From contig CBDDBZ010000019.1 in NCBI GenBank assembly GCA_965225945.1, positions 13,594 to 77,593 on the forward strand: a stretch of DNA of 64,000 nucleotides, written 5' to 3'. The notes beneath the pieces were generated by a model. The model was not told the origin of the DNA, searched no databases, and saw nothing but the letters and a program-made list of their open reading frames with translations. Shown in pieces: positions 3,728-53,116 of this stretch. The position numbers were made by a program, and so were the translations under genes. Positions within the stretch are counted from its first letter, which is position 1. Each line of letters begins with the position of its first letter. The stretch comes from Alphaproteobacteria bacterium (GTDB taxonomy: Bacteria; Pseudomonadota; Alphaproteobacteria; GCA-2731375).

Positions 3728-4449
3728 TGTGGAACGGCGTGCAAAGTTGACCCCTGCTGAGGGGTGATCGGCGTCCAAATTTGACCCCCTGAGCCTGGCT
3801 AGTCCAAGTCACCTCGTTTTTGGGCGGACGAGGTGGTGGGGGATGTTGGTCGTGGAGACGATAGCGCGGATCCGGCGGGAGTATTTCGTCAAGGGGAAGC
3901 CGATCAAGGAGATCGTGCGGGACGTGAAGGTCTCGGGCAACACGGTGCGCAAGGTGATCCGTTCGCAGGCGACGGCGTTCACCTACGACCGGCGGGTCCA
4001 GCCGATGCCGAAGCTGGGGCCGTGGACGGCCGAGCTGGAGCGGATGCTGGAGGCCAACGAGACCAAGTCGAAGCGGGAGCGGCTGACGCTGCTACGGATC
4101 TCCGAAGCCCTCGAGGGTCTGGGCTATGGCGGCGGCTACGACGCGGTGCGGCGCTACGCCAAGGCGTGGCGGTGGCGCCGTTCGGCATCGACGGCGCAGA
4201 CCTATGTGCCGTTGGTGTTCTCGCCGGGCGAGGCCTATCAGTTCGACTGGAGCCACGAGTACGTGGTGCTGGCGGGGGTGACGACCAAGGTCAAGGTCGC
4301 GCACGTCCGGCTGTGCCACAGCCGAATGTTCTTCGTCCGCGCTTATCCGCGCGAGAGCCAGGAGATGGTGTTCGACGCCCACGACCGGGCATTCCGGCTG
4401 TTCCAGGGTGCCTGCCGGCGAGGCATCTACGACAACATGAAGACGGCGG
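3728..4449 (+). mobile_element. IS21-family element, left half (IRL plus 5' istA)
   Basis: Begins TGTGGAACGGCGTGCAAAGTTGACCCC with an internal repeat of the motif; truncated by IS256 at 4450. Confidence 0.9.
3843..4449 (+). pseudogene. istA: IS21 transposase IstA, N-terminal part
   Basis: HTH plus PGEAYQFDWS and RGIYDNMKTA, then interrupted. Confidence 0.9.
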
Positions 4450-4984
4450 GGGGATGTCCCGGGCTCTGTTGAAAAGCTGAAGTAGGCGTCGTCCGCCTGG
4501 AGCCGCTAGGCTCTGGGTGCTGATTCCATCAAGGAGAACGACGCCATGACCAAGACTACACGCAACGACCGTTCCTCGGAACCATCCTGTCGGCTCTTGC
4601 CATCGATGCCGGAGGCCTTCGACGATCTGCGCATGAGCGTCGATCGCTTCTGCCTTTTGGCGGGCCTCGAGTCTTTGAACGAGATGATGTCGGCGGACGC
4701 GGAAGCCTTGTGCGGTTCGCGCCACGCCCGCTCGGGCGAGCGCAAGGGCCATCGATGGGGCACGACCCGGAGCGAGATCGCCTACCACGGCGGCAAAGTG
4801 AAGGTCGAGCGCCCTCGGGTGCGGGACTTCGCGGGTCGGGAGATGAGCCTGCCGAGTTGGGAGCTGCTGTCGGAACCCGAACTCTTGCAAGCCTGGGCGA
4901 TGAATCTGATGGTGATCAACGTCTCGACCCGCAAGTATGCCCGCGCGGTGCGCCTGCCGGACGATGCGGGCGGCGATCTGCCGG
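4450..4984 (+). mobile_element. IS256-family element type B, 5' remnant
   Basis: Matches the start of the full copy at 49574; cut at 4984 by the IS3-like element. Confidence 0.92.
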
Positions 4985-5029
4985 TGAGTCGGACCCGATT
5001 TCCTTGGACACAGAATTGGCTTAATCGAA

Positions 5030-5461
5030 GTGTCCAAGGAGGACCGGAACATGACCGACAATTTTGAAAACAAAGTTGCTGTTGATGGGCCTGTGGTAAA
5101 CGAGGGCGAGCTTGGCTCGTCCACGTTTTCCCCGGGCCAGGTTTCGCCGGCAGGCCCGCTGGGACTTGGCCAGCGGTGGACGGTGACGCGCAAGCGTGAG
5201 GTTGCCCTGCGGCTTTTGCGTGGCGAGCCGGTGGAACTTTTGTCGCGGCAGTTGGGCGTGGAGATTTTCCGGCTCGAGCAGTGGCGTGAGAAGGCGATCG
5301 CCGGGATCGATGCCTCGCTCAAGGAACGCAAGGGCGATCCGGTAAAGGCGGAACTGGACATCGCCATGAAGCGGATCGGGGAGTTGATCATGCAGGTGGA
5401 ACTGCTGGAGGCCAAGACGGAGACGTCCGGCCCTTTGGGGCGGCGGAGGTCGCGGCGATGA
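5030..5461 (+). CDS. IS OrfA (HTH)
   Basis: RWTVTRKREVALRLLRGEPVELLSRQLGV; ATGA overlap with OrfB. Confidence 0.85.
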   Translation: MSKEDRNMTDNFENKVAVDGPVVNEGELGSSTFSPGQVSPAGPLGLGQRWTVTRKREVALRLLRGEPVELLSRQLGVEIFRLEQWREKAIAGIDASLKERKGDPVKAELDIAMKRIGELIMQVELLEAKTETSGPLGRRRSRR

Positions 5462-6369
5462 GTGCCGCCACCTCTCCCGGCACGGGTTTGGCCTACGGCC
5501 TCCAGCGGGTCTGTGCGGCCTGGGGTTTTGCCCGTTCCTCGTTCTACGCCATGAAATCCCGGCAGCAGGCCACCGCTGAGCGCCCACCAGCAAAGCGCCG
5601 GGGACCGAAGCCCTCGATCTCGGACGAGGCTCTGCTGGTGGCCATCGAGGCCGACCTGGAGGCATCCCCCTGGGAGGGCGAGGGACACCGCAAGGTCTGG
5701 GCTCGGCTTCGGGTCTGTCGTGGCATCCGTGTTTCCCGCAAGCGGGTGCTCCGGGTGATGCGCGAGAACAACCTGCTCTCGCCCCATCGCTGCCGCCGCC
5801 GTGGCGGAAATCCCCATGTCGGTGAGATCATCACCCATGCCCCCAACCTCATGTGGGGCACGGACGGCGTTCGGGTGTTCACGGTGGACGACGGCTGGGG
5901 CTGGATATTCACCGCCATCGAGCATTGGAACGCCGAGTGCGTCGGCTGGCATGTGTGCAAGCGAGGCGACCGCTTCGCCGCCCTTCAGCCGATCTCCATG
6001 GGGCTTGCGAGGCTGTATGCCTCGACCTCCGCCGGTGCGGCGCGGGGGCTGGCCTTGCGGATGGATCACGGCTCCCAGTATCTGTCGGACCACTTCACCA
6101 ACCAGATCAAGTTCTGGGGCATCCAGCCGTCCTACGCCTTCGTCGAACAGCCCCAGACCAACGGCGTCGCCGAGAGGTTCAATCGCACGCTCAAGGAACA
6201 GATCATCCATGGCCGCATCTACCGCAACATCGCGGAGCTGCGGAACGCCGTCCGCGGGTTCGTCGAACAGTACAATGCCCAGTGGATCGTGGAGAAGAAC
6301 GGCTACCTGAGCCCCGCTCAAGCTCGTCAGGCGTGGCACACCGCGATGTCACTCAGGCCCGCCGCATGA
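5458..6369 (+). CDS. IS OrfB, integrase-core (rve) transposase
   Basis: PNLMWGTD, MDHGSQY, PQTNGVAERFNRTLKE motifs. Confidence 0.92.
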   Translation: MSAATSPGTGLAYGLQRVCAAWGFARSSFYAMKSRQQATAERPPAKRRGPKPSISDEALLVAIEADLEASPWEGEGHRKVWARLRVCRGIRVSRKRVLRVMRENNLLSPHRCRRRGGNPHVGEIITHAPNLMWGTDGVRVFTVDDGWGWIFTAIEHWNAECVGWHVCKRGDRFAALQPISMGLARLYASTSAGAARGLALRMDHGSQYLSDHFTNQIKFWGIQPSYAFVEQPQTNGVAERFNRTLKEQIIHGRIYRNIAELRNAVRGFVEQYNAQWIVEKNGYLSPAQARQAWHTAMSLRPAA

Positions 6370-6552
6370 GACAAACTTGTGTCCAAGGAACCGGGTGCGA
6401 TACACCCGCGACAAGCCGTGTCGGCCCGGCGCCATGGCGCGACGCTTCCGAGGTTCGGCCCGGCGGACGACGTGGCGGATTGGCCGCGCCCGCCGCCCGA
6501 GTATGATATCGAGCGTGAGTTTCGGCATCGCACGCGCGAAACGGGGTGAGAC

Positions 6553-7715: not shown

Positions 7716-8468
7716 CTTGCCTATCCGGTTATCACACACCCACTATATGTAGTGTGTCTCCTTGGACTGCAGGCAAGGGCCGGCGCAGGCGCATTGAGGA
7801 GGCGATCCGGCTAATTCTTGATTGTTCTGAAAACCGAACCGGAGTTTAATTCACGTCACGTATTTAACATCGGGGGACGGAACGGTGGCGACCAAGGGAA
7901 AAACGAAGAAACCCACGGCCAGACGGGAAGCTGCTGATGAAACGACATCGTCTGAGCGATTGACGGCACTAGTCGAAGAAAGCGACGCGCTGGCACGAAT
8001 CGTTGCGAAGAACCCGTCCGCGCCTGTTAGTCTCCTGCGCGTTTTGAGTCGCAGCGAAGACGAAGCGACACGCAAGAACGTGATCCTCAATCCGTTTACT
8101 TCATATGACGTATTGAGCGAACTTGAAAACCAGTTCACAGAGCTATTTGTGAATAATCCGGCACTCGAATCCTACAATTCAATGAAGCTCTGATTTCCTG
8201 GAATATTCCATCGGTGTCGTTCACCTCCGATTTCAGATAAATTTCAATGAAGTGACGGTCCTTTATGCAACGTGGCGTTTTGCCAAATCCGACTCAATGA
8301 TTAGGATTTCCACCACGCTAAAGTGTCGCCTAAAAGGCGCTACAATGCCGTCCGAGTCCCTGCTCGGCATCGCCGGAGATATCTCCGCTTCGACCTGCAC
8401 CGAGCTTTACTCAGGAAAATGGGTGCACACTACATATAGTGGGTGTGGGTGATAACCGGATAGGTAAG
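7716..8468 (+). mobile_element. Non-autonomous IS1595-derived cassette, copy 1 (753 bp)
   Basis: TIR CTTGCCTATCCGGTTATCAC…; 8-bp TSD GTTCAGCC at 7708-7715 and 8469-8476; slightly diverged from copies 2-4. Confidence 0.93.
7885..8193 (+). CDS. Passenger protein, leucine-rich-repeat-variant/HEAT-like (copy 1)
   Basis: 102 aa with VAKNPSAPVSLL, VILNPFTSYDVL and FVNNPAL repeats; GTG start after a GGGGGA RBS-like motif. Confidence 0.7.
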   Translation: MATKGKTKKPTARREAADETTSSERLTALVEESDALARIVAKNPSAPVSLLRVLSRSEDEATRKNVILNPFTSYDVLSELENQFTELFVNNPALESYNSMKL

Positions 8469-24769: not shown

Positions 24770-25051
24770 GCTTGTGTAGCGTGAGGTCTGGAAATTTGGC
24801 TTCGCCCCGCGCCGGGGTATACCCCGGCGCGGGGCGATCCGTCATTTTGGTTATCCATGAAAGCGTCCAAACAAACATGGAGAACCAGTATGCGGAAAGA
24901 CCAGGATAGCGCTGTCGAGGCTTTGGTGGAACAATTGATCGAAGGCGGTAGCGAGAACATGGCGCCGGTCTTCGCCGGCCTTTTCAATCTCGCCATGCGG
25001 ATCGAGCGGGAGAGGTTCTTGGGCGCCGGCCACTATGAGCGCACGCCCGAG
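24770..25051 (+). mobile_element. IS256-family element type A, 5' remnant
   Basis: Matches the reverse complement of the IS256 left end at 39407; cut by IS3-like copy 2. Confidence 0.9.
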
Positions 25052-25086
25052 TGTATCGCACCCGGTTCCTTGGACACAAGTTTGTC

Positions 25087-25998
25087 TCATGCGGCGGGCC
25101 TGAGTGACATCGCGGTGTGCCACGCCTGACGAGCTTGAGCGGGGCTCAGGTAGCCGTTCTTCTCCACGATCCACTGGGCATTGTACTGTTCGACGAACCC
25201 GCGGACGGCGTTCCGCAGCTCCGCGATGTTGCGGTAGATGCGGCCATGGATGATCTGTTCCTTGAGCGTGCGATTGAACCTCTCGGCGACGCCGTTGGTC
25301 TGGGGCTGTTCGACGAAGGCGTAGGACGGCTGGATGCCCCAGAACTTGATCTGGTTGGTGAAGTGGTCCGACAGATACTGGGAGCCGTGATCCATCCGCA
25401 AGGCCAGCCCCCGCGCCGCACCGGCGGAGGTCGAGGCATACAGCCTCGCAAGCCCCATGGAGATCGGCTGAAGGGCGGCGAAGCGGTCGCCTCGCTTGCA
25501 CACATGCCAGCCGACGCACTCGGCGTTCCAATGCTCGATGGCGGTGAATATCCAGCCCCAGCCGTCGTCCACCGTGAACACCCGAACGCCGTCCGTGCCC
25601 CACATGAGGTTGGGGGCATGGGTGATGATCTCACCGACATGGGGATTTCCGCCACGGCGGCGGCAGCGATGGGGCGAGAGCAGGTTGTTCTCGCGCATCA
25701 CCCGGAGCACCCGCTTGCGGGAAACACGGATGCCACGACAGACCCGAAGCCGAGCCCAGACCTTGCGGTGTCCCTCGCCCTCCCAGGGGGATGCCTCCAG
25801 GTCGGCCTCGATGGCCACCAGCAGAGCCTCGTCCGAGATCGAGGGCTTCGGTCCCCGGCGCTTTGCTGGTGGGCGCTCAGCGGTGGCCTGCTGCCGGGAT
25901 TTCATGGCGTAGAACGAGGAACGGGCAAAACCCCAGGCCGCACAGACCCGCTGGAGGCCGTAGGCCAAACCCGTGCCGGGAGAGGTGGCGGCACTCAT
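25087..25998 (-). CDS. IS OrfB transposase
   Basis: Same protein as 5458..6369. Confidence 0.92.
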   Translation of the reverse strand: MSAATSPGTGLAYGLQRVCAAWGFARSSFYAMKSRQQATAERPPAKRRGPKPSISDEALLVAIEADLEASPWEGEGHRKVWARLRVCRGIRVSRKRVLRVMRENNLLSPHRCRRRGGNPHVGEIITHAPNLMWGTDGVRVFTVDDGWGWIFTAIEHWNAECVGWHVCKRGDRFAALQPISMGLARLYASTSAGAARGLALRMDHGSQYLSDHFTNQIKFWGIQPSYAFVEQPQTNGVAERFNRTLKEQIIHGRIYRNIAELRNAVRGFVEQYNAQWIVEKNGYLSPAQARQAWHTAMSLRPAA

Positions 25999-26426
25999 CG
26001 CCGCGACCTCCGCCGCCCCAAAGGGCCGGACGTCTCCGTCTTGGCCTCCAGCAGTTCCACCTGCATGATCAACTCCCCGATCCGCTTCATGGCGATGTCC
26101 AGTTCCGCCTTTACCGGATCGCCCTTGCGTTCCTTGAGCGAGGCATCGATCCCGGCGATCGCCTTCTCACGCCACTGCTCGAGCCGGAAAATCTCCACGC
26201 CCAACTGCCGCGACAAAAGTTCCACCGGCTCGCCACGCAAAAGCCGCAGGGCAACCTCACGCTTGCGCGTCACCGTCCACCGCTGGCCAAGTCCCAGCGG
26301 GCCTGCCGGCGAAACCTGGCCCGGGGAAAACGTGGACGAGCCAAGCTCGCCCTCGTTTACCACAGGCCCATCAACAGCAACTTTGTTCTCAAAATTGTCG
26401 GTCATGTTCCGGTCCTCCTTGGACAC
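25995..26426 (-). CDS. IS OrfA
   Basis: Same protein as 5030..5461. Confidence 0.85.
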   Translation of the reverse strand: MSKEDRNMTDNFENKVAVDGPVVNEGELGSSTFSPGQVSPAGPLGLGQRWTVTRKREVALRLLRGEPVELLSRQLGVEIFRLEQWREKAIAGIDASLKERKGDPVKAELDIAMKRIGELIMQVELLEAKTETSGPLGRRRSRR

Positions 26427-26567
26427 TTCGATTAAACCAATTCTGTGTCCAAGGAAATCGGGTCCGACTCACGGCTTGTCGCGGGAAAGGATTTTGCGCC
26501 CCGCCGTCGACTGTGGCATGGTCCGCCGAGAATCGTCGATAGATATTGTCGGACAAAGAGTTAGCCG

Positions 26568-43150: not shown

Positions 43151-45325
43151 GTTCTTCCTCCCATCTTGGCTCCGGCGCCGGACGGCGCCTCATGCTTAGC
43201 GTTGGCCGTTTGTTTAGCGGTCGGGTCCATGCTCTGTCAAAAGCCGGCCGCACGGCGATTCCGGCGCGCCTCCGCGCGCGGTTTCGCTCAGTCGTTTGCT
43301 AGCTCCCCCAACGCGGATTGCAATCGCGTCCAGGCCCCCTCGATCGAGGCTTCGTCGGCCGAGAGATCGGTTTCGCCGGCCTTGAGCGCCGTCTCGATCC
43401 GGCCGAAGAGGGCGCCGAACTCACCCGCGCCTGCATTTCTCGACGATCCAGCGAGGCTATGGGCGGCATCGGCGGCGAGCTCGATGTCGCCGTCGGCCCG
43501 CGCCGTCCGATATCGCGCCAACGCCTCCGCCGCCGTGCTTCCATAGAGCGCCAGCATTTCCTTGGCCTCGTCGTCCAAGGCGCCGAACAGTTCCGCGATG
43601 CGGGAGGTGTCGAGCACGACGTCGTCATCGCCCTCGCCGCCGGCCACGATCGAGATCGTGTCGTATCCGGACTTCATCGTTGCCGGTATCCAGCGTTCGA
43701 GCGCGCTCGACAGCACGGCGATATCGATGGGCTTGCCCAGGTAGTCGTCCATACCCGCGTCCAGATAGTGCTGCCGGTCGTCTAGTTGGACGTGCCCGGT
43801 CATCGCGATTACCGGCGTCCGGCGTTCCGACCCCGCTTCCCACGACCTGAGGCGTTCCAGGAAGGTCAAGCCATCCATTTTGGGCATGGTGATATCGACC
43901 AGAACGACATCGATGCCTCCGGCCCGCGCCATCTCCAACGCAACTTCCCCGTTCTCGGCGAGGCGGCAGGCGATGCCGAGCTTTTCGAGCTGCTTTCGCG
44001 CGAGGATTCGATTGGCTTCGTCGTCGTCGACGACGAGCGCGGTCGCGCCGTCGTAATCCAGCGGTGCTCTCGGACGGTCGTCGGTCAGTCGCGCGAGCGT
44101 GTCCAGCAACCCGTCGGCCCTGACCGGCTTGGTCAACACGACATCCATGCCCGCCTGGAGGCAAGTCTCGAGCTCGGCCTCGATCACGCTCGCCGTTATC
44201 CCGACGATCGGAAGATCGGACCACGGCGGGCCCATCCGACGGATCCGTCCCGTCGCTTCCAGACCGTCCATGATCGGCATGTGCCGATCCATCAGGATGA
44301 TGTCGAAGCGTCCCGCCCGGGTCGCCTCGAGCGCCTCGACTCCGTTCTCGGCTTCGACCACCTGGTGGCCGGCGCGAAGCAACATTTGGTTGACGACCCG
44401 TCGATTGGTCGCGTTGTCCTCCACGTGCAGGATCGACAGCGGCCGCTTCGGCTCGGACGACGGCGCGAAGCGGGGAAAGCCGGATCGCGAGCTCTCGGAG
44501 GCTTCGGCGAGATCGTCGGCGGAGCTAATGGGGAAGCGGGCGGTGAAACGGAACGTGCTGCCCGTGCCCAGCTTGCTCTCCAGCGCGATCTCGCCGCCCA
44601 TCATGGCGACCAGGTGGCGGCAGATCGACAGGCCCAGGCCGGTCCCGCCAAATTGGCGCGCGACGTCGAGGGATTCCTGACTGTAGGCAGAGAACAGCTT
44701 GGCCTGTGCGTCCTCGGCAATCCCCTTGCCGGTATCGACGACGGCGAATTCCAGCAGCGCGGTCTTATCGTCCGAGTCGGCGAGTCCGACCTCGACGCGG
44801 ACCGAGCCCTGGTCGGTGAACTTGATCGCATTGCTGAGCAGATTGAGGACCACTTGGCGGAGACGATACGGATCGCCCGAGAGCACGTCCGGCACCTCCG
44901 GCGCGATTTCGCCGGTCAACACCAGCCCACCTTCCAGGGCGCGCGGTTCCAAGAGGCGCACCGCGTCGGCGACGACACTTGCGACCTCGAAGGGGATCCG
45001 TTCCAACTCCAGACCCTCCGCGTCCAGGCGCGCCATGTCGAGGAGATCGTCGACGACCCGCAGCAACGCACGGCCGGAAGTGACGATCACCTCGACACAT
45101 TCGCTGCTCTCCTTGTCGAGCTTCATGTCTTGCAGGAGCTGAGCCATGCCCAGTACGCCGTTCATCGGCGTGCGGACCTCGTGACTCATCATGGCCAGGA
45201 ACTCGGACTTGGCTCGATTGGCCTCGTCGGCGCGCAGGCGCGCCGTTTCCTCGCCGGCATAGGACGTGCCCTGCGCGCTGGTGAAGACGAAGAAGATCAT
45301 GACCACCGGCGCGATCGGATCGAAC

Positions 45326-46080
45326 CTTGCCTATCCGGTTATCACCCACACCCACTATATGTAGTGTGTCTCCTTGGACTGCAGGCAAGGGCCGGCGCAG
45401 GCGCATTGAGGAGGCGATCCGGCTAATTCTTGATTGTTCTGAAAACCGAACCGGAGTTTAATTCACGTCACGTACTTAACATCGGGGGACGGAACGGTGG
45501 CGACCAAGGGAAAAACGAAGAAACCCACGGCCAGACGGGAAGCTGCTGATGAAACGACATCGTCTGAGCGATTGACGGCACTAGTCGAAGAAAGCGACGC
45601 GCTGGCACGAATCGTTGCGAAGAACCCGTCCGCGCCTGTTAGTCTCCTGCGCGTTTTGAGTCGCAGCGAAGACGAAGCGACACGCAAGAACGTGATCCTC
45701 AATCCGTTTACTTCATATGACGTATTGAGCGAACTTGAAAACCAGTTCACAGAGCTATTTGTGAATAATCCGGCACTCGAATCCTACAATTCAATGAAGC
45801 TCTGATTTCCTGGAATATTCCATCGGTGTCGTTCACCTCCGATTTCAGATAAATTTCAATGAAGTGACGGTCCTTTATGCAACGTGGCGTTTTGCCAAAT
45901 CCGACTCAATGATTAGGATTTCCACCACGCTAAAGTGTCGCCTAAAAGGCGCTACAATGCCGTCCGAGTCCCTGCTCGGCATCGCCGGAGATATCTCCGC
46001 TTCGACCTGCACCGAGCTTTACTCAGGAAAATGGGTGCACACTACATATAGTGGGTGTGGGTGATAACCGGATAGGCAAG
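45326..46080 (+). mobile_element. Non-autonomous IS1595-derived cassette, copy 2 (755 bp)
   Basis: 43-bp perfect TIR (45326-45368 / 46038-46080). Confidence 0.93.
45497..45805 (+). CDS. LRV/HEAT-like passenger protein (copy 2)
   Basis: Identical 102-aa ORF. Confidence 0.7.
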   Translation: MATKGKTKKPTARREAADETTSSERLTALVEESDALARIVAKNPSAPVSLLRVLSRSEDEATRKNVILNPFTSYDVLSELENQFTELFVNNPALESYNSMKL

Positions 46081-46107
46081 GAATGAAGATTTCATGTAAG
46101 ATCGAAT

Positions 46108-47228
46108 CTTGCCTATCCGGTTAACGCCCATGACCGCTACATGTAGGGTGCCGCCACTCTCCCGAGTAAAGCTCGGCATAGGTTGGAGCAGAGGTGTCGC
46201 CCGCGATGCCGAGCAATGAGCGGAAGGCGTTGAACGGGTAGAACCGCCTGTTGAAGCGGAAGGTGAACTCGTTGAGGTAGGCTTGTAGGTGCTGGTGGCT
46301 AACGCCGTGGTGGATACCGATCAGCCACGTCTTCAGGTTGGCGAAAACCAGATGGATGATCGGCAGGTATTGCTCGGCAACCTCTGGATCACCACACTCG
46401 GCAACAGCGAAGTGCTCATAGCCGCGCTTACCGAGGCCAGCATAGCCGCTCCAATCGTCAGTAACGATCAGCGATCCCGGCGCGACGGTGCTCTCGACGA
46501 ACCCACAGAGCGACTCGGCGCTACGGTCGAGCACGACGGCGAGCCGAACGCGTCCGGCATAGCGTCCGTCTTTCCGGTTGTCGAGCTTGGTGCCCGGCTT
46601 TCGATGACGCACCTCGATGGCACAGGAGACGAGAACCTTGTGGTGAACACCACGGCCTTCCCCACGCGTTCGCCCGCCAACCCAGGTTTCGTCCACCTCA
46701 ACATGGTTCTTGGGCTGTCCACCGATCCTGTCTTGGTTGGGCCGCACCATGCCCGAGCGGAGCTTGTGGAGAATTTGAAAGGCCGTCTCGTAGCGCGAAA
46801 GACCAAGTTGCCGCTGAAACTGCACGGCGGACATGCCGGGCGTCTGACTGGCGACCAGATAAGCGGCCCAGAACCAGACGTTCAGCGGAGTGTGGCTACG
46901 CTCCATCACTGTTCCCACCGTCAGCCCGGTGTTCTGGCGGCACTTGCGGCAGCGCAGGACGCCAGGGCGGTTTTCAAAGTGGAACGGCTCTCCCGCCGTG
47001 CCGCAGTGCGGGCAGGCAAAGCCGTCTCCCCAGCGGGCTTTCTCCAGGTAGGCGGCGCAGGCCGCATCATCGGGGAAAAGTCGCTGGAACTCGGGTACCC
47101 GTTCAACGCCTTCCGCTCATTGCTCGGCATCGCGGGCGACACCTCTGCTCCAACCTATGCCGAGCTTTACTCGGGAGAGTGGCGGCACCCTACATGTAGC
47201 GGTCATGGGCGTTAACCGGATAGGCAAG
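46108..47228 (-). mobile_element. IS1595-family element with a duplicated right end (133-bp perfect TIR)
   Basis: 46108-46240 is the reverse complement of 47096-47228; TSD GATCGAAT at 46100-46107 and 47229-47236. Confidence 0.93.
46121..47095 (-). pseudogene. IS1595 (ISXO2-like) transposase lacking its start
   Basis: Zn ribbon CPHC…CRKC, VEVDETWVGG, TDDWSGY, YLNEFTFRFNRR; in-frame TGA just upstream within the duplicated arm. Confidence 0.88.
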
Positions 47229-47545
47229 GATCGAATCTTAGGCCATCTATTCGCTGAATGCTGTGATGGCCATCACATGCCGGCCATGGAATCGTGAAAT
47301 TCGCCGTCGCGCGCCAGGCGGTCCGGCCGGTTGGGCCTGGGGCTGGGCGGCGACTTCGACCTAATTTCCGGGCGCGGGGACCGACTCGGCGGCGCGTCGA
47401 GGCCAGCGCGACGCGAACCGGGAAACCACCAATGGACATATCCCTCGCCCTCGTCCCGAAGCTACCATGCCCCGCCGGGTTGGCCGGGGAAGCGGGTGGC
47501 CGGTCGATTCCGCGCCGGCGGATCACGCTCACAAGGAGGGATATC

Positions 47546-47852
47546 GTGCCCGAGGGACGCATCGTCTTCACCCGGATGGAGCGCTCTTCACCCGGATGGA
47601 GCGCGTGATCTTCGGCCGGGCGGCGCCACGCTCGCCCGCGAAACCGACGAGGTCGACCGGATCCGCGCCGCGCTGGGCGACCGCTTCGCCGGCCTGGGCT
47701 TGCTGCGGAGCCTGGCCGAGGTCGGTGTCGGGCGGCACGACTTCGAGCTCATCGCGCGCAACACGATGAACGATTCCTGGACCTATTCGAACCCGAGGAA
47801 GATCGCCGGTCCCGAGGACGTGATGGGGATCCTCCACGCCGCCGCCGGGTAG
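47546..47852 (+). pseudogene. Iron-containing alcohol dehydrogenase remnant with internal deletion
   Basis: RBS plus GTG, N-terminal FTRMERVIFG (with a 20-bp tandem duplication) fused to C-terminal GLLRSLAEVGV…SNPRKI. Confidence 0.6.
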
Positions 47853-47860
47853 CCGCCCCG

Positions 47861-48690
47861 CTAGTCGTCCGCTTGCGCTAGCAGGGTGGCGTTGCCGCCG
47901 GCCGCCGTGGTGTCGATGCAGAGCACCTGCTCGTGGACGAAGGGGCGGAGATCGCCGCCCGTCTCCAGCGCGACGATTCCGCCCTCGCGCGCCGCCAGCG
48001 CGCGGCGCAGCGCCGTCAAGGGCCCCGCCTCGCCGCGCGCGACGAGACCGGCCAGGTGCGGCAGCGCGACCAGGTCGGCGGGGTCGAGCGGACCGGCGCG
48101 CGCGACCACGGGCAAGCCGGCCTCCCCGAGACGGCTGGCGAGCGGCCCCGGGGGATCGATCATCAGCACCGCGTTGGCCAGCGCCAGCGCCCCCACCATC
48201 GCGGCATCGTCGCCCAGGACCAGAAACACGCCACGCGGCCGTAGCGAAATCCGGTTGCTCTCTCCGGTCGGACCGGGGAGCTCGGCGGGCGCATCGAGCA
48301 GGGCCTGGGCGGCCTCCAGCGCGGCCGAGGGTTCCGCCATGGGGCTGCCCAGCAACGCCCGGAGCAGAGCCGGTCGATCCCCCCGCCGGGCCCAGTCCGG
48401 TTGCAGCAGGGCGAGACGCGCCATCTCGTGCCCGAGCGTCGCCGCCTCCGACAGCGTTCCGAGCACCAGGGCGATCCCGGGCCGGCAATCCGGGCGGCGG
48501 CGAAAGCGCGGCAGATAGTTGGGCCCGCCCGCCTTCGGCCCGGTGCCGGAGTTGCCCCGCCCGCCGAACGGTTGCGAGCCGACGACGGCGCCGATTTGGT
48601 TGCGATTGACGTAGAGGTTGCCGGCCTGGATCCGCTCGACCACCCGCTGCACCCGGCGGTCGACCCGGGTGTGGAGGCCGAAGGTCAGGC
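47861..48690 (-). pseudogene. putA: C-terminal fragment of PutA (P5C dehydrogenase part)
   Basis: GLTFGLHTR, AGNLYVNRNQIGAVVGSQPFGG, GTGPKAGGPNYL, LPGPTGESN, IDTTAAGGNA; cut by cassette copy 3. Confidence 0.92.
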
Positions 48691-49445
48691 CTTGCCTATC
48701 CGGTTATCACCCACACCCACTATATGTAGTGTGCACCCATTTTCCTGAGTAAAGCTCGGTGCAGGTCGAAGCGGAGATATCTCCGGCGATGCCGAGCAGG
48801 GACTCGGACGGCATTGTAGCGCCTTTTAGGCGACACTTTAGCGTGGTGGAAATCCTAATCATTGAGTCGGATTTGGCAAAACGCCACGTTGCATAAAGGA
48901 CCGTCACTTCATTGAAATTTATCTGAAATCGGAGGTGAACGACACCGATGGAATATTCCAGGAAATCAGAGCTTCATTGAATTGTAGGATTCGAGTGCCG
49001 GATTATTCACAAATAGCTCTGTGAACTGGTTTTCAAGTTCGCTCAATACGTCATATGAAGTAAACGGATTGAGGATCACGTTCTTGCGTGTCGCTTCGTC
49101 TTCGCTGCGACTCAAAACGCGCAGGAGACTAACAGGCGCGGACGGGTTCTTCGCAACGATTCGTGCCAGCGCGTCGCTTTCTTCGACTAGTGCCGTCAAT
49201 CGCTCAGACGATGTCGTTTCATCAGCAGCTTCCCGTCTGGCCGTGGGTTTCTTCGTTTTTCCCTTGGTCGCCACCGTTCCGTCCCCCGATGTTAAGTACG
49301 TGACGTGAATTAAACTCCGGTTCGGTTTTCAGAACAATCAAGAATTAGCCGGATCGCCTCCTCAATGCGCCTGCGCCGGCCCTTGCCTGCAGTCCAAGGA
49401 GACACACTACATATAGTGGGTGTGGGTGATAACCGGATAGGCAAG
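48691..49445 (-). mobile_element. Non-autonomous IS1595-derived cassette, copy 3 (inverted)
   Basis: Reverse complement of copy 2. Confidence 0.93.
48966..49274 (-). CDS. LRV/HEAT-like passenger protein (copy 3)
   Basis: Identical 102-aa ORF. Confidence 0.7.
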   Translation of the reverse strand: MATKGKTKKPTARREAADETTSSERLTALVEESDALARIVAKNPSAPVSLLRVLSRSEDEATRKNVILNPFTSYDVLSELENQFTELFVNNPALESYNSMKL

Positions 49446-49573
49446 GTTCGAACATCCATTGGTAATGCACGAAGGCGAGCCACGAGCCGGCCACGACAAA
49501 GGCCGTGCCGATGGCGGCGATCGCCAGACCCGCGTAAGCGCCGAAGCGCCGTAACAACACGATCAGGAGCAGG

Positions 49574-51024
49574 GGGGATGTCCCGGGCTCTGTTGAAAAG
49601 CTGAAGTAGGCGTCGTCCGCCTGGAGCCGCTAGGCTCTGGGTGCTGATTCCATCAAGGAGAACGACGCCATGACCAAGACTACACGCAACGACCGTTCCT
49701 CGGAACCATCCTGTCGGCTCTTGCCATCGATGCCGGAGGCCTTCGACGATCTGCGCATGAGCGTCGATCGCTTCTGCCTTTTGGCGGGCCTCGAGTCTTT
49801 GAACGAGATGATGTCGGCGGACGCGGAAGCCTTGTGCGGTTCGCGCCACGCCCGCTCGGGCGAGCGCAAGGGCCATCGATGGGGCACGACCCGGAGCGAG
49901 ATCGCCTACCACGGCGGCAAAGTGAAGGTCGAGCGCCCTCGGGTGCGGGACTTCGCGGGTCGGGAGATGAGCCTGCCGAGTTGGGAGCTGCTGTCGGAAC
50001 CCGAACTCTTGCAAGCCTGGGCGATGAATCTGATGGTGATCAACGTCTCGACCCGCAAGTATGCCCGCGCGGTGCGCCTGCCGGACGATGCGGGCGGCGA
50101 TCTGCCGGCGGCATCGGGTGACGCAACCTCGAAGTCGGCGGTCTCGCGCCGTTTCGTGGCGTTGACGCGAAGCAAGCTGAAGGCCTGGCTGGCGAGCCCG
50201 CTCGACGATCTCGATCTCGTGGTGCTCCAGATCGACGGGCTCCATGTCGGCGATCACCTGATGGTGGCGGCGATCGGCATCGACACCGGCGGCGCGAAGC
50301 ACGTGCTGGGCCTGGCCGAGGGCGCGACGGAGAACGCGGCCACGGTGCAAGCCATGCTCGACAACCTGATCGAGCGCGGTCTCGATCCCGAACGGCCTCG
50401 GCTCTACATCGTCGACGGCGCCAAGGCGCTCTCGAAGGCGATCCGGCGGACCTTCGGGCGGGCGGCGGCCCTCCAGCGCTGCCAGGTGCACAAGGGGCGC
50501 AACATCACGGACCGGCTGGACGAGAGCCTCCATGCCGGCGTCAGGAAGGTCTTGCGGCAGGCCTGGCAGCAGGACGACGCGGCCAAGGCCGAACGGCTCT
50601 TGCGCAACCTCGCCCGCCGTCTGGAGCATGACGCACCCGGCGTCTCGGGCTCGATCCTGGAGGGCCTGGACGAGATCCTGACGGTGATCCGGCTCGGCCT
50701 CCCGCCGCAACTTCGACACTCGCTGGCTTGCACCAACGCCATCGAGAACGCGATCGGCACCGTCCGGACGGTGCAGCGGAACGTCAAGCGCTGGCGCAAC
50801 GCCGAGATGGCGCTGCGTTGGACCGCCGCCGGCCTCTTGGAGGCGCAAAAGACCTTCCGCCGCCTCAAGGCCTACCGCCAGCTCCCCGTCCTTGACGCCG
50901 CCCTGCGGGAGGCGGTGAGAAAGGCCGGAGCAAAGTCCGTCATTGAAGACATCGAGGTGGCCGCGTAGCCTCTCGATCAGACGATGCCTATCTCGCACTT
51001 TTCAACATTGGGCGGGACATCGCC
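49574..51024 (+). mobile_element. IS256-family element type B (full length)
   Basis: TIR GGGGATGTCCCG / GGCGATGTCCCG; 8-bp TSD GGAGCAGG at 49566-49573 and 51025-51032. Confidence 0.95.
49670..50968 (+). CDS. IS256 transposase
   Basis: LQIDGL, IVDGAKAL, LQRCQVHK, CTNAIEN. Confidence 0.93.
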   Translation: MTKTTRNDRSSEPSCRLLPSMPEAFDDLRMSVDRFCLLAGLESLNEMMSADAEALCGSRHARSGERKGHRWGTTRSEIAYHGGKVKVERPRVRDFAGREMSLPSWELLSEPELLQAWAMNLMVINVSTRKYARAVRLPDDAGGDLPAASGDATSKSAVSRRFVALTRSKLKAWLASPLDDLDLVVLQIDGLHVGDHLMVAAIGIDTGGAKHVLGLAEGATENAATVQAMLDNLIERGLDPERPRLYIVDGAKALSKAIRRTFGRAAALQRCQVHKGRNITDRLDESLHAGVRKVLRQAWQQDDAAKAERLLRNLARRLEHDAPGVSGSILEGLDEILTVIRLGLPPQLRHSLACTNAIENAIGTVRTVQRNVKRWRNAEMALRWTAAGLLEAQKTFRRLKAYRQLPVLDAALREAVRKAGAKSVIEDIEVAA

Positions 51025-51116
51025 GGAGCAGGCCCAGCACCAACATATAGACCAGCTCCACCACGTTGGCGAAGCCGGGGCGGAGCAGATAATCGCCCGC
51101 GATGATTTGTTCGACG

Positions 51117-51871
51117 CTTGCCTATCCGGTTATCACCCACACCCACTATATGTAGTGTGTCTCCTTGGACTGCAGGCAAGGGCCGGCGCAGGCGCATTGA
51201 GGAGGCGATCCGGCTAATTCTTGATTGTTCTGAAAACCGAACCGGAGTTTAATTCACGTCACGTACTTAACATCGGGGGACGGAACGGTGGCGACCAAGG
51301 GAAAAACGAAGAAACCCACGGCCAGACGGGAAGCTGCTGATGAAACGACATCGTCTGAGCGATTGACGGCACTAGTCGAAGAAAGCGACGCGCTGGCACG
51401 AATCGTTGCGAAGAACCCGTCCGCGCCTGTTAGTCTCCTGCGCGTTTTGAGTCGCAGCGAAGACGAAGCGACACGCAAGAACGTGATCCTCAATCCGTTT
51501 ACTTCATATGACGTATTGAGCGAACTTGAAAACCAGTTCACAGAGCTATTTGTGAATAATCCGGCACTCGAATCCTACAATTCAATGAAGCTCTGATTTC
51601 CTGGAATATTCCATCGGTGTCGTTCACCTCCGATTTCAGATAAATTTCAATGAAGTGACGGTCCTTTATGCAACGTGGCGTTTTGCCAAATCCGACTCAA
51701 TGATTAGGATTTCCACCACGCTAAAGTGTCGCCTAAAAGGCGCTACAATGCCGTCCGAGTCCCTGCTCGGCATCGCCGGAGATATCTCCGCTTCGACCTG
51801 CACCGAGCTTTACTCAGGAAAATGGGTGCACACTACATATAGTGGGTGTGGGTGATAACCGGATAGGCAAG
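51117..51871 (+). mobile_element. Non-autonomous IS1595-derived cassette, copy 4 (755 bp)
   Basis: 8-bp TSD GTTCGACG at 51109-51116 and 51872-51879. Confidence 0.95.
51288..51596 (+). CDS. LRV/HEAT-like passenger protein (copy 4)
   Basis: Identical 102-aa ORF. Confidence 0.7.
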   Translation: MATKGKTKKPTARREAADETTSSERLTALVEESDALARIVAKNPSAPVSLLRVLSRSEDEATRKNVILNPFTSYDVLSELENQFTELFVNNPALESYNSMKL

Positions 51872-53116
51872 GTTCGACGATCTGCGCTCGAATTTCGACC
51901 TTGGGAACCGAGTGCTCGAGCGGGGTCGAGCCGTAACCGTGAAGGCCCGCCGCGCCGCTCCTGACGAAGACGATCTTGCCGGTGATTTGCGCGCCGTCGA
52001 AATCTTCCGCCAGCACCCGCCAGGCCGGAATGAAACGGCTCGCCTCGTGCTTGGTGAAACGGCCCCATATGCGACCATGCACGTCGGTGGGCACCTGGAA
52101 ACGGCCGATACGGACCACCTCCACGCCACTTTTTCCGCCGAAGGCCTCCGCGCGGCTCGAACCCGATATCCTCAGGAGATAGGTCTTGGCACCCTGCGCG
52201 ACGCGAAGCGTCTCCGCCACCAAGGTCGGATACAACTAGCCATTGAGCTGCAGGACCAACGGCATCTTCCGCTCCACGCGGTCGTATTCGTAGATCGCGT
52301 TGAGCGCGCCGTTGCTTGCGCTCGCCGCGCCTATGTCCGCCAGATTGACGATGGCGTTGCGATAGTGGGGAAGGAAGAAGCGCGGATCGTCGCCGGCATA
52401 GGAGAAGGCGGCGCGCTCGACCGGGCGGCGTGGCTCGGCGCTTCGACGTCCGTCGTCCAACCCGGCTTCGCTCCCTTGCGTCAGCAGGAAACCGGTGACG
52501 ACCGGTGCGTTCACCATCGCGGCGGCGAATACCGAGTCGTATGTCGCAATCCCCGCCAACATCGGCCCGAGCGCACGCACCTCTTCCGTGTCCGGCAAGG
52601 CTTTCAACGCCTGTTCCGGCGAGGTCGGATCCGGTTCCGAAAGAACGTCGTCCAAGACGATGGCGGCGGCCCCGGCCTCCGCCAAGCGATCGATTAGTCG
52701 GGCGAGGCGCGCCCGGGGCCACGGCGCGGGGCCAAATCGTGCCCGAGATTCGCCATCGACATCGACGATCCTGACCGGGATCTCCGAGTCGCAGGCGCGC
52801 GGCATCAGCCGCTGATAGGTATCGAAGACGAGATTGCGTGCGTGCTGGGCGTAGGCCGGATCCCAGACGCGCACAAGCAGGATCGCGAAGAGTATCAAAT
52901 AGGGCAGTGCGTGGATCAGACGGACGATGATCGATCAACCAGCCCTGTGTGTCGTGACATCGACGCATCTCGGCGGGGCGAGATGCCGGACGGTCGGCGA
53001 CGCGCACCCATCACCGAGCCTGCGGCATTTCCCCTGCGAGCTCAAGGCCGTCGGACGAGGGCGGCGGCGAGGACGAGCGCCCAGGGCATGATGGATCTCG
53101 GCGGAAGCGGAGCGCG

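Follow-up and report, generated by a model that had tools for sequence, protein, structure and literature searches.

The kinase gene and the unit inside it

The window is the whole stretch of 64,000 nucleotides analysed here (G000:C19:13594-77593, where G000 is the source genome), and the subject of this analysis is a 4,120-bp unit at window positions 45326-49445 that splits a gene for a CHASE2 hybrid histidine kinase. Each end of the unit is a 755-bp cassette with 43-bp perfect terminal inverted repeats, an element present in four copies in the window. Copy 2 (45326-46080, forward strand) is a non-autonomous IS1595-family element of the mobile insertion cassette (MIC) type, and copy 3 (48691-49445, reverse strand) is 100% identical to it in inverted orientation. 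Both point the same end outward, and both kinase flanks adjoin this "end A" (the repeat and then TCTCCTTGG...). The downstream part of the kinase gene, encoding HisKA-HATPase-REC-REC-Hpt, lies at 43288-45325 on the reverse strand, and a transmembrane piece of the same gene (49446-49573, reverse strand) remains between the unit and an IS256-like insertion. A preliminary description of this DNA had placed all of its features correctly.

Between the two cassettes, a 27-nt spacer (46081-46107) consists of GAATGAAG, which is the inner flank of copy 2, 11 further nucleotides, and GATCGAAT, which is the left duplication of an inner insertion sequence (IS). The inner IS (46108-47228, reverse strand, duplication GATCGAAT) is a 1,121-bp variant of a 1,105-bp IS1595-family IS. 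Its positions 1-990 match that IS, and an inverted copy of the other end, about 133 bp long, takes the place of the end with the transposase start. An open transposase frame of 331 codons remains and lacks a start codon before the zinc ribbon, suggesting that the unit probably encodes no working transposase. The unit had been called transposase-less, which is apt in that it needs a transposase in trans but does not fit its cargo, where most of a start-less IS1595 transposase frame is found. The remaining cargo comprises intergenic DNA with an internally deleted Fe-ADH pseudogene, a C-terminal remnant (47229-47860, forward strand), and the 3' end of putA (47861-48690, reverse strand, the last ~275 codons), which is cut exactly at the cassette. 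The cargo thus agrees with the list given earlier, namely an IS1595 element, an Fe-ADH remnant, and a 3' part of putA ending precisely at 48690, that is, at copy 3.

The unit is bordered by GATCGAAC at 45318-45325 and GTTCGAAC at 49446-49453. These outer flanks match at 7 of 8 positions, whereas neither cassette has a target-site duplication of its own, both of which the preliminary description had reported. Copy 2 lies between GATCGAAC and GAATGAAG, which are alike at 5 of 8 positions, and copy 3 lies between GGTCAGGC and GTTCGAAC on the forward strand, or GTTCGAAC and GCCTGACC in the orientation of the element (4 of 8 alike). Among 66 full-length copies of the cassette in the genome, most of them 99-100% identical, 50 have perfect 8-bp duplications, four have duplications matching at 7 of 8 positions, and 12 have fewer matches, implying that 8 bp is the signature of this cassette and that single mismatches do happen. 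The duplications also reveal a palindromic target preference, G-W-T-C-G-A-W-C. Because of this preference, a chance match at 7 of 8 positions is well above the uniform-random expectation, yet it is still rare: 30 of 2,450 comparisons of unrelated cassette flanks (1.2%) reach at least 7/8. As in a composite transposon, two 755-bp copies bracket DNA unrelated to transposition (the putA and Fe-ADH fragments), and a duplication of the family's length, short of perfect, surrounds the whole unit and not the individual copies.

The target gene in its uninterrupted form was found in other samples. Assembled contigs, and no reads, of four public runs (X15, X17, X20, and X1) were placed on 44300-49900. 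In X15 and X17, which come from two different studies, one contig each joins 45319 directly to 49448 and skips 4,128 bp, the length of the unit plus 8 bp. The joint reads GATCGAAC, and the flanks otherwise show no differences. As the left duplication copy has the sequence of the empty site, it represents the ancestral state, from which the right copy, GTTCGAAC, differs by one change. The match of both contigs breaks off at 49573, at the start of the IS256-like element, with 2,425 and 279 letters beyond, respectively; the two contigs are without at least the composite and the IS256-like insertions. X20 and X1 represent the occupied form, with contigs running from the kinase into copy 2 (22 nt) and from the inner IS into the cargo. 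The word depth of the contigs, which does not give copy numbers, was 8.3-10.1 for the cargo and 2.7 for the kinase flank in X20, 3.2-4.5 and at most 1.5 in X1, 5.4-5.5 and 3.4 in X15, and 12.4 and 6.95 in X17. Exact-pattern scans of metagenome contigs returned no stretch of the cargo DNA and none of the kinase flank.

Removing 45318-49445 (the unit with one duplication copy) in silico leaves a single open frame, ...HYQWMF(E/D)PIAPVVMIFF..., and restores the kinase reading as the preliminary description had stated. When the IS256-like element with its duplication and cassette copy 4 with its duplication are removed as well, the result is an 865-codon open frame of a CHASE2 hybrid histidine kinase. 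No close orthologue of the kinase was found among 40 relatives (best 54-59% identity), and the frame was therefore checked against a 57% identical homologue from the same genus, L006. The alignment extends over 606 columns and is gapless at all three junctions. At the junction of the unit, it reads ...HYQWMFEPIAPVVMIFF... versus ...DYHWLLDPVAPLVVVFF..., and the homologue has D at the residue in question, matching what GATCGAAC encodes. A comparison with relatives carrying an intact kinase, which had been proposed earlier, thus yielded no close relative, and the empty site came from the X15 and X17 contigs instead. The kinase gene as a whole (43288-52898, reverse strand) has four interruptions. 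Three are insertions, namely the unit, the IS256-like element (49574-51024, duplication GGAGCAGG), and cassette copy 4 (51117-51871, duplication GTTCGACG); the fourth is an in-frame TAG at 52236-52238.

Origin of the cargo

The only Pro_dh match of the genome lies at the start of contig C18. The first letters of this contig, CCGGATAGGCAAG, are the final 13 nt of an IS1595-type end, and they are followed by GGTCAGGC and then by the 5' part of putA. The same 8 nt, GGTCAGGC, are the last nucleotides of the putA 3' fragment in the window (48683-48690). The 5' part of putA beside an element end is what the preliminary description had predicted for another place in the genome. The part on C18 contains the PRODH, DNA-binding, and Pro_dh domains and positions 7-397 of the Aldedh profile, and the part in the window covers positions 409-454, so that the halves are complementary. 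They read ...ATGHGLT and (G)LTFGLHTRVD..., compared with ATGYGLTFGLHTRVD in the intact putA of G002, a genome of the same genus. A full Fe-ADH gene (389 aa) comes after putA in G002, where the two are convergent neighbours. This adjacency indicates that the cargo is one contiguous piece of the native locus, with Fe-ADH internally deleted. Moreover, the putA and the kinase homologue of G002 are on different contigs, and putA is not native at the kinase locus. An empty target site and a cargo that originates elsewhere, as in a composite transposon, are therefore both found for this unit.

X15 and X17 also hold 47229-48691. Their contigs extend 709-781 nt past 48691 and 202-1,502 nt past 47229 and show no match to the cassette or the inner IS at those boundaries, which fits an uninterrupted native locus. 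The Fe-ADH remnant in the window contains a 20-bp tandem duplication (47566-47605) that is not in the X15 and X17 contigs.

The left flank of the native locus was not located through the genes beyond Fe-ADH in G002, which match the source genome at 35-57% (tblastn). Likewise, the 19-nt spacer and hypothetical pre-insertion junction strings matched at the window only when searched genome-wide. A cassette on C39 that has GAATGAAG as its duplication was considered as the donor's other flank and rejected, as its flanks are unrelated. When the contig ends were inspected, only C18 was found to start in a cassette or IS end; one end of C27 lies inside an IS, and GAATGAAG occurs at none.

The break in C18 bears on the possibility of an assembly artefact, in which wrong exits at two cassettes would have stitched a simple cassette insertion in the kinase to a cassette-flanked putA locus. 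C18 ends exactly at the element end beside putA, the cargo is single-copy, and no external contig spans the unit, all of which such an error would explain. However, 66 complete cassettes and ISs of 1.1-1.6 kb lie in contig interiors, suggesting that the assembler routinely resolved repeats of this kind, and apart from C18, no contig has an end within or next to a cassette or at GAATGAAG. One wrong join would have to rest on the 43-bp repeat alone, since the kinase flanks share the same cassette end, and two wrong exits would both have to lead back into one gene, with its frame preserved and the 8-mers matching. In addition, the X20 and X1 contigs independently show the junctions between the kinase and copy 2 and between the inner IS and the cargo. 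We therefore consider a misassembly of this kind very improbable.

Cassette pairs and the probable movement of the unit

Twenty-one pairs of neighbouring cassettes lie no more than 20 kb apart in the genome. In only three of these are both members without a duplication of their own, and in all three the outer flanks match. One is the pair on C19 described above (unit 45326-49445), with a 7/8 match, inverted copies, and ends A/A outward. The second, at C24:55786-61169, consists of direct copies with ends B/A outward and has GATCAGAC on both sides (8/8); its 3,874-bp cargo has a cassette-free, 99.5% identical copy on C34. The third, at C33:252803-254713, has ends B/B outward, GTTGATTC on both sides (8/8), and a 401-bp cargo. 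Removing this pair gives a 564-aa frame that is continuous with a HAMP-PAS-HisKA-HATPase kinase, and the cassette-cargo-cassette module is found on C38 as well (99.9% identity over 1,833 bp), which is indirect evidence that such units move. The occurrence of A/A, B/B, and B/A pairs in one genome suggests that the two cassette ends are interchangeable. The earlier proposal that DNA lying between any pair of copies can be mobilised by them gains from the two further pairs with perfect outer duplications, although the cases number only three.

The orientation of the ends also bears on an alternative history by recombination. A single cassette would have entered the kinase first, with a duplication of its own, and homologous double crossover or gene conversion between cassettes would later have brought in the cargo and a second cassette from the putA locus. 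The 66 near-identical cassettes offer ample homology, the kinase duplication would be left in place, and a single-copy cargo beside a putA 5' part still at an element end would be explained. However, a single cassette has one end A and one end B, and both kinase flanks adjoin end A. A single insertion followed by crossovers in the body of the cassette therefore cannot yield the layout, and at least one crossover would be needed within the 43-bp terminal repeat. The donor cassettes are mutually inverted, which does not fit a simple two-ended invasion, and inversions with a cassette at the putA locus would, to judge from the layout, part the two halves of the kinase, which lie only 4.1 kb apart. 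Furthermore, the two other pairs have perfect outer duplications with ends B/B and B/A, which fits a transposase acting on any two ends. On balance, recombination appears quite improbable as the source of the unit. A replicative intramolecular inversion was considered as well and rejected, as it predicts outer flanks from two loci and not two halves of one gene.

The probable source of a transposase acting on the cassettes in trans is the 1,105-bp IS, to judge from the similarity of the ends. The terminal 15 nt of the IS and the cassette are identical, and 35 of the 43 repeat positions match at either end. The IS (for example, C26:2024-3128) encodes a 339-aa protein with the domains Zn_ribbon_IS1595 (PF12760, E 6.9e-14) and DDE_Tnp_IS1595 (PF12762, E 3.7e-37), and in nine copies the frame is open over 350 codons or more. 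The IS1595 family, in the portion of the source consulted (PMC8101967), has one transposase, which combines a DDE_Tnp_IS1595 domain with a zinc ribbon at the N terminus, and makes 8-bp duplications. By its predicted domains, zinc ribbon, and 8-bp duplications, the 1,105-bp IS fits the family as it is characterised there.

Several derivatives of this IS were observed in the genome. Two copies, with different duplications, are of the 1,121-bp type, where one end has given way to ~133 bp of the opposite end. In a 1,631-bp form, present in six copies, the complete IS is joined by an inverted duplicate of 505 bp from the same end. These derivatives with two identical ends are sited at window 46108-47228, at C34:188810-189930, and on C1, C14, C15, C27, C33, and C38. 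Symmetry distinguishes the cassette and both derivatives from the parent IS, whose two repeats differ from each other at 12 of 43 positions. Overall, the genome contains 149 matches to the DDE_Tnp_IS1595 domain, belonging to several distinct IS types, and many other repeated ISs, among them one with a 310-bp end at more than 60 places.

Taken together, the unit at 45326-49445 is very probably a composite (compound) transposon, made of two IS1595-family MICs and moved as a unit. In the proposed sequence of events, a cassette would first have entered putA at the native putA/Fe-ADH locus, making the GGTCAGGC duplication, and a second cassette would have landed ~2.6 kb away, next to GAATGAAG, with the IS1595 variant between the two. 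A transposase supplied in trans, likely from the 1,105-bp IS with at least nine open-frame copies, would then have paired the two outward cassette ends through their identical 43-bp repeats. Finally, the 4,120-bp block would have entered GATCGAAC in the CHASE2 hybrid histidine kinase gene, where filling in of the staggered 8-bp cut would have produced the flanking duplication, one copy of which was later changed at a single position. As the donor kept an element end beside putA, the unit would have been copied, or the donor restored from the sister chromosome.

Several observations weigh against this history. The duplication around the unit is imperfect, at 7/8. No outside read or contig spans the 4.1 kb; the contigs of the public runs are short and reach 22-25 nt into the repeats in X20 and X1. 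The first 13 nt of C18 are common to the cassette and the IS, and the element there cannot be named. The role of a trans-acting transposase is deduced from the similarity of ends alone, and movement itself is inferred. In addition, the unique cargo (47229-48690) is single-copy in the assembly, yet the donor half of putA adjoins an element end, which means that the donor was not simply emptied. Had the unit stayed at the donor in full, the cargo should be present twice. Either the second copy is unassembled, given that C18 stops 13 nt inside the repeat, or a later rearrangement altered the donor, or the population is mixed.

The cassette family and related systems

The remaining cassette of the window, copy 1, lies at 7716-8468 with the duplication GTTCAGCC. 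The cassette has a GC content of 51%, compared with 66% for the genome, and carries one recognisable passenger gene (in copy 2, 45497-45805, forward strand) for a 102-aa protein with an LRV_2 domain (Pfam PF25591, E 2.6e-08). A Pfam scan of its two open reading frames (ORFs; 102 aa and 66 aa) revealed no transposase domain, and the 66-aa frame was without any match. Over its last 126 bp, the cassette shares 77% identity with the 3' end of the IS1595-family IS, which points to a vestige of the transposase gene. By its IS-type repeats, the lack of a transposase, and the presence of at least one predicted coding sequence, the cassette is an MIC under the definition given in the part of PMC6199540 that we drew on.

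Homologues of the LRV_2 protein number 234 at E <= 0.001. Among the 120 matches listed, the identity is 74-99%, and most are on contigs shorter than ~1.5 kb. Of these 120, 24 were aligned and showed no internal indel except one missing residue. The structure model of the protein is all-helical with a disordered basic N terminus, and its mean predicted local distance difference test score (61.5) is too weak for a fold search. In nine further loci (L033-L041), an LRV gene of 70-81% identity lies between the same repeat tips (at most 2 mismatches in 13 nt). These loci come from metagenome-assembled genomes (MAGs) labelled Proteobacteria, Alphaproteobacteria, Rhodospirillales, and Dehalococcoidia; the tips are ~520-550 bp apart in seven of the nine, and no transposase gene adjoins them. 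They represent a shortened version of the cassette, from which the transposase vestige is missing. Cassette DNA is also present in other species (G002:C2:13043-13726, G002:C3:1427719-1428062, G017 contig ends, and G029:C1:2267776-2268145), as an 89% identical full-length copy in the same genus and as 99-100% identical partial copies in another genus and another family, a distribution that suggests recent horizontal spread.

At C26:1253-3136 of the source genome, a cassette and a 1,105-bp IS lie side by side, and GTTCGATC occurs three times, on both outer sides and between the two. This arrangement indicates that the second element entered the duplication left by the first. The palindromic target is remade at each insertion, which may favour closely spaced pairs.

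A more far-reaching proposal is that the IR/LRV-gene/IR cassette (IR, inverted repeat) is a hyperparasitic family that crosses phyla (Alphaproteobacteria and a Dehalococcoidia MAG) and whose LRV protein recruits or redirects IS1595 transposases to symmetrical ends. We regard this as unlikely. If true, it would explain why the cassette is present in 66 copies and its autonomous partner in ~10, why every successful derivative here has two identical ends, and why cassette pairs move host DNA so readily. The cassette would then be a dedicated transposase-hijacking, gene-shuffling system and no decayed IS.

Among known systems, a close parallel in function is provided by the TIME-COMPs, which are built from Tn3-derived MITEs (miniature inverted-repeat transposable elements) and, in the sections of the report used here, have been shown experimentally with inverted (TIME-COMP1) or direct (TIME-COMP2) copies, both with 5-bp duplications (PMC4133298). 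As far as that account goes, in both systems two non-autonomous copies, inverted or direct, bracket unrelated DNA, the unit moves whole with the duplication typical of its family and a transposase supplied in trans, and the cargo is captured once a second copy has landed nearby. However, TIME-COMPs consist of 262-bp Tn3-family MITEs that have 38-bp repeats and produce 5-bp duplications, and trap plasmids were used to show that they move (PMC4133298, same sections), whereas the present unit has 755-bp gene-carrying IS1595-family cassettes, 8-bp duplications, and chromosomal cargo, and its movement is deduced from the empty and donor sites. The unit works like a TIME-COMP but is no member of that group, because its ends are of the IS1595 type and its duplication is 8 bp.

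The single cassette is similar to MIC231 and IS231 of the Bacillus cereus group, where, according to the excerpted text of PMC6199540, two IS-type repeats enclose at least one passenger gene and no transposase, the size is 0.7-3 kb, and the cognate IS transposase mobilises the element in trans. For the present cassette, the evidence of mobilisation in trans is indirect and consists of the 66 copies, the 50 perfect 8-bp duplications, and the nine open-frame IS copies. MIC231 belongs to the IS4 family and to Firmicutes (PMC6199540, as excerpted), whereas the ends of the cassette described here are of the IS1595 type with identical 43-bp repeats, its passenger gene encodes an LRV-domain protein, the transposase 3' end persists in it as a vestige, and its pairs act as a compound transposon.

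Within the IS1595 family, the pseudo-compound transposon Tn7560, bounded by ISApl4, was reported in 2025 (PMC12561309). In the part of that report consulted, Tn7560 shares with the present unit the 8-bp duplications, the mobilisation of intervening DNA by two copies, and a genome with many copies (39 there); its ISApl4 copies are full and transposase-encoding, and its cargo consists of resistance genes. In the present unit, by contrast, the bounding elements encode no transposase, are inverted, and enclose fragments of housekeeping genes. Pseudo-compound transposons of the IS26/ISApl4 type have direct bounding copies, an arrangement seen in the C24 pair, whereas copies 2 and 3 lie in inverted orientation. 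MITE-flanked integrons of Acinetobacter also have the same MITE at both ends of the cargo, inside an ORF, and were read as mobilised by the pair, although the element there is a different, 439-bp non-coding one on a plasmid with resistance-gene cargo (PMC3934969, in the passages seen). A full-text literature search found no composite bounded by IS1595-family cassettes and no LRV cassette of this kind, which is no proof of absence in print.

The mechanism is established for other families, and the present case is a well-documented example that introduces no new principle. Its value lies in the locus, where a single event is preserved in three stages, namely in the donor half of putA, in the moved unit, and, in other samples, in the empty target site. 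It indicates that transposase-less cassettes in pairs can relocate ordinary chromosomal DNA, and it is an entry point to a MIC family that looks undescribed. For the annotation of IS-rich, apparently sponge-associated genomes, it means that gene fragments such as the 3' end of putA can be transposon cargo and not a product of local decay.

Elsewhere in the window, the first 537 bp of the IS256-like element have a second copy at 4448-4984, which is cut at 4984 by a 1,425-bp repeat. The two copies of this repeat (4984-6408 and 25048-26472) are inverted and 100% identical.

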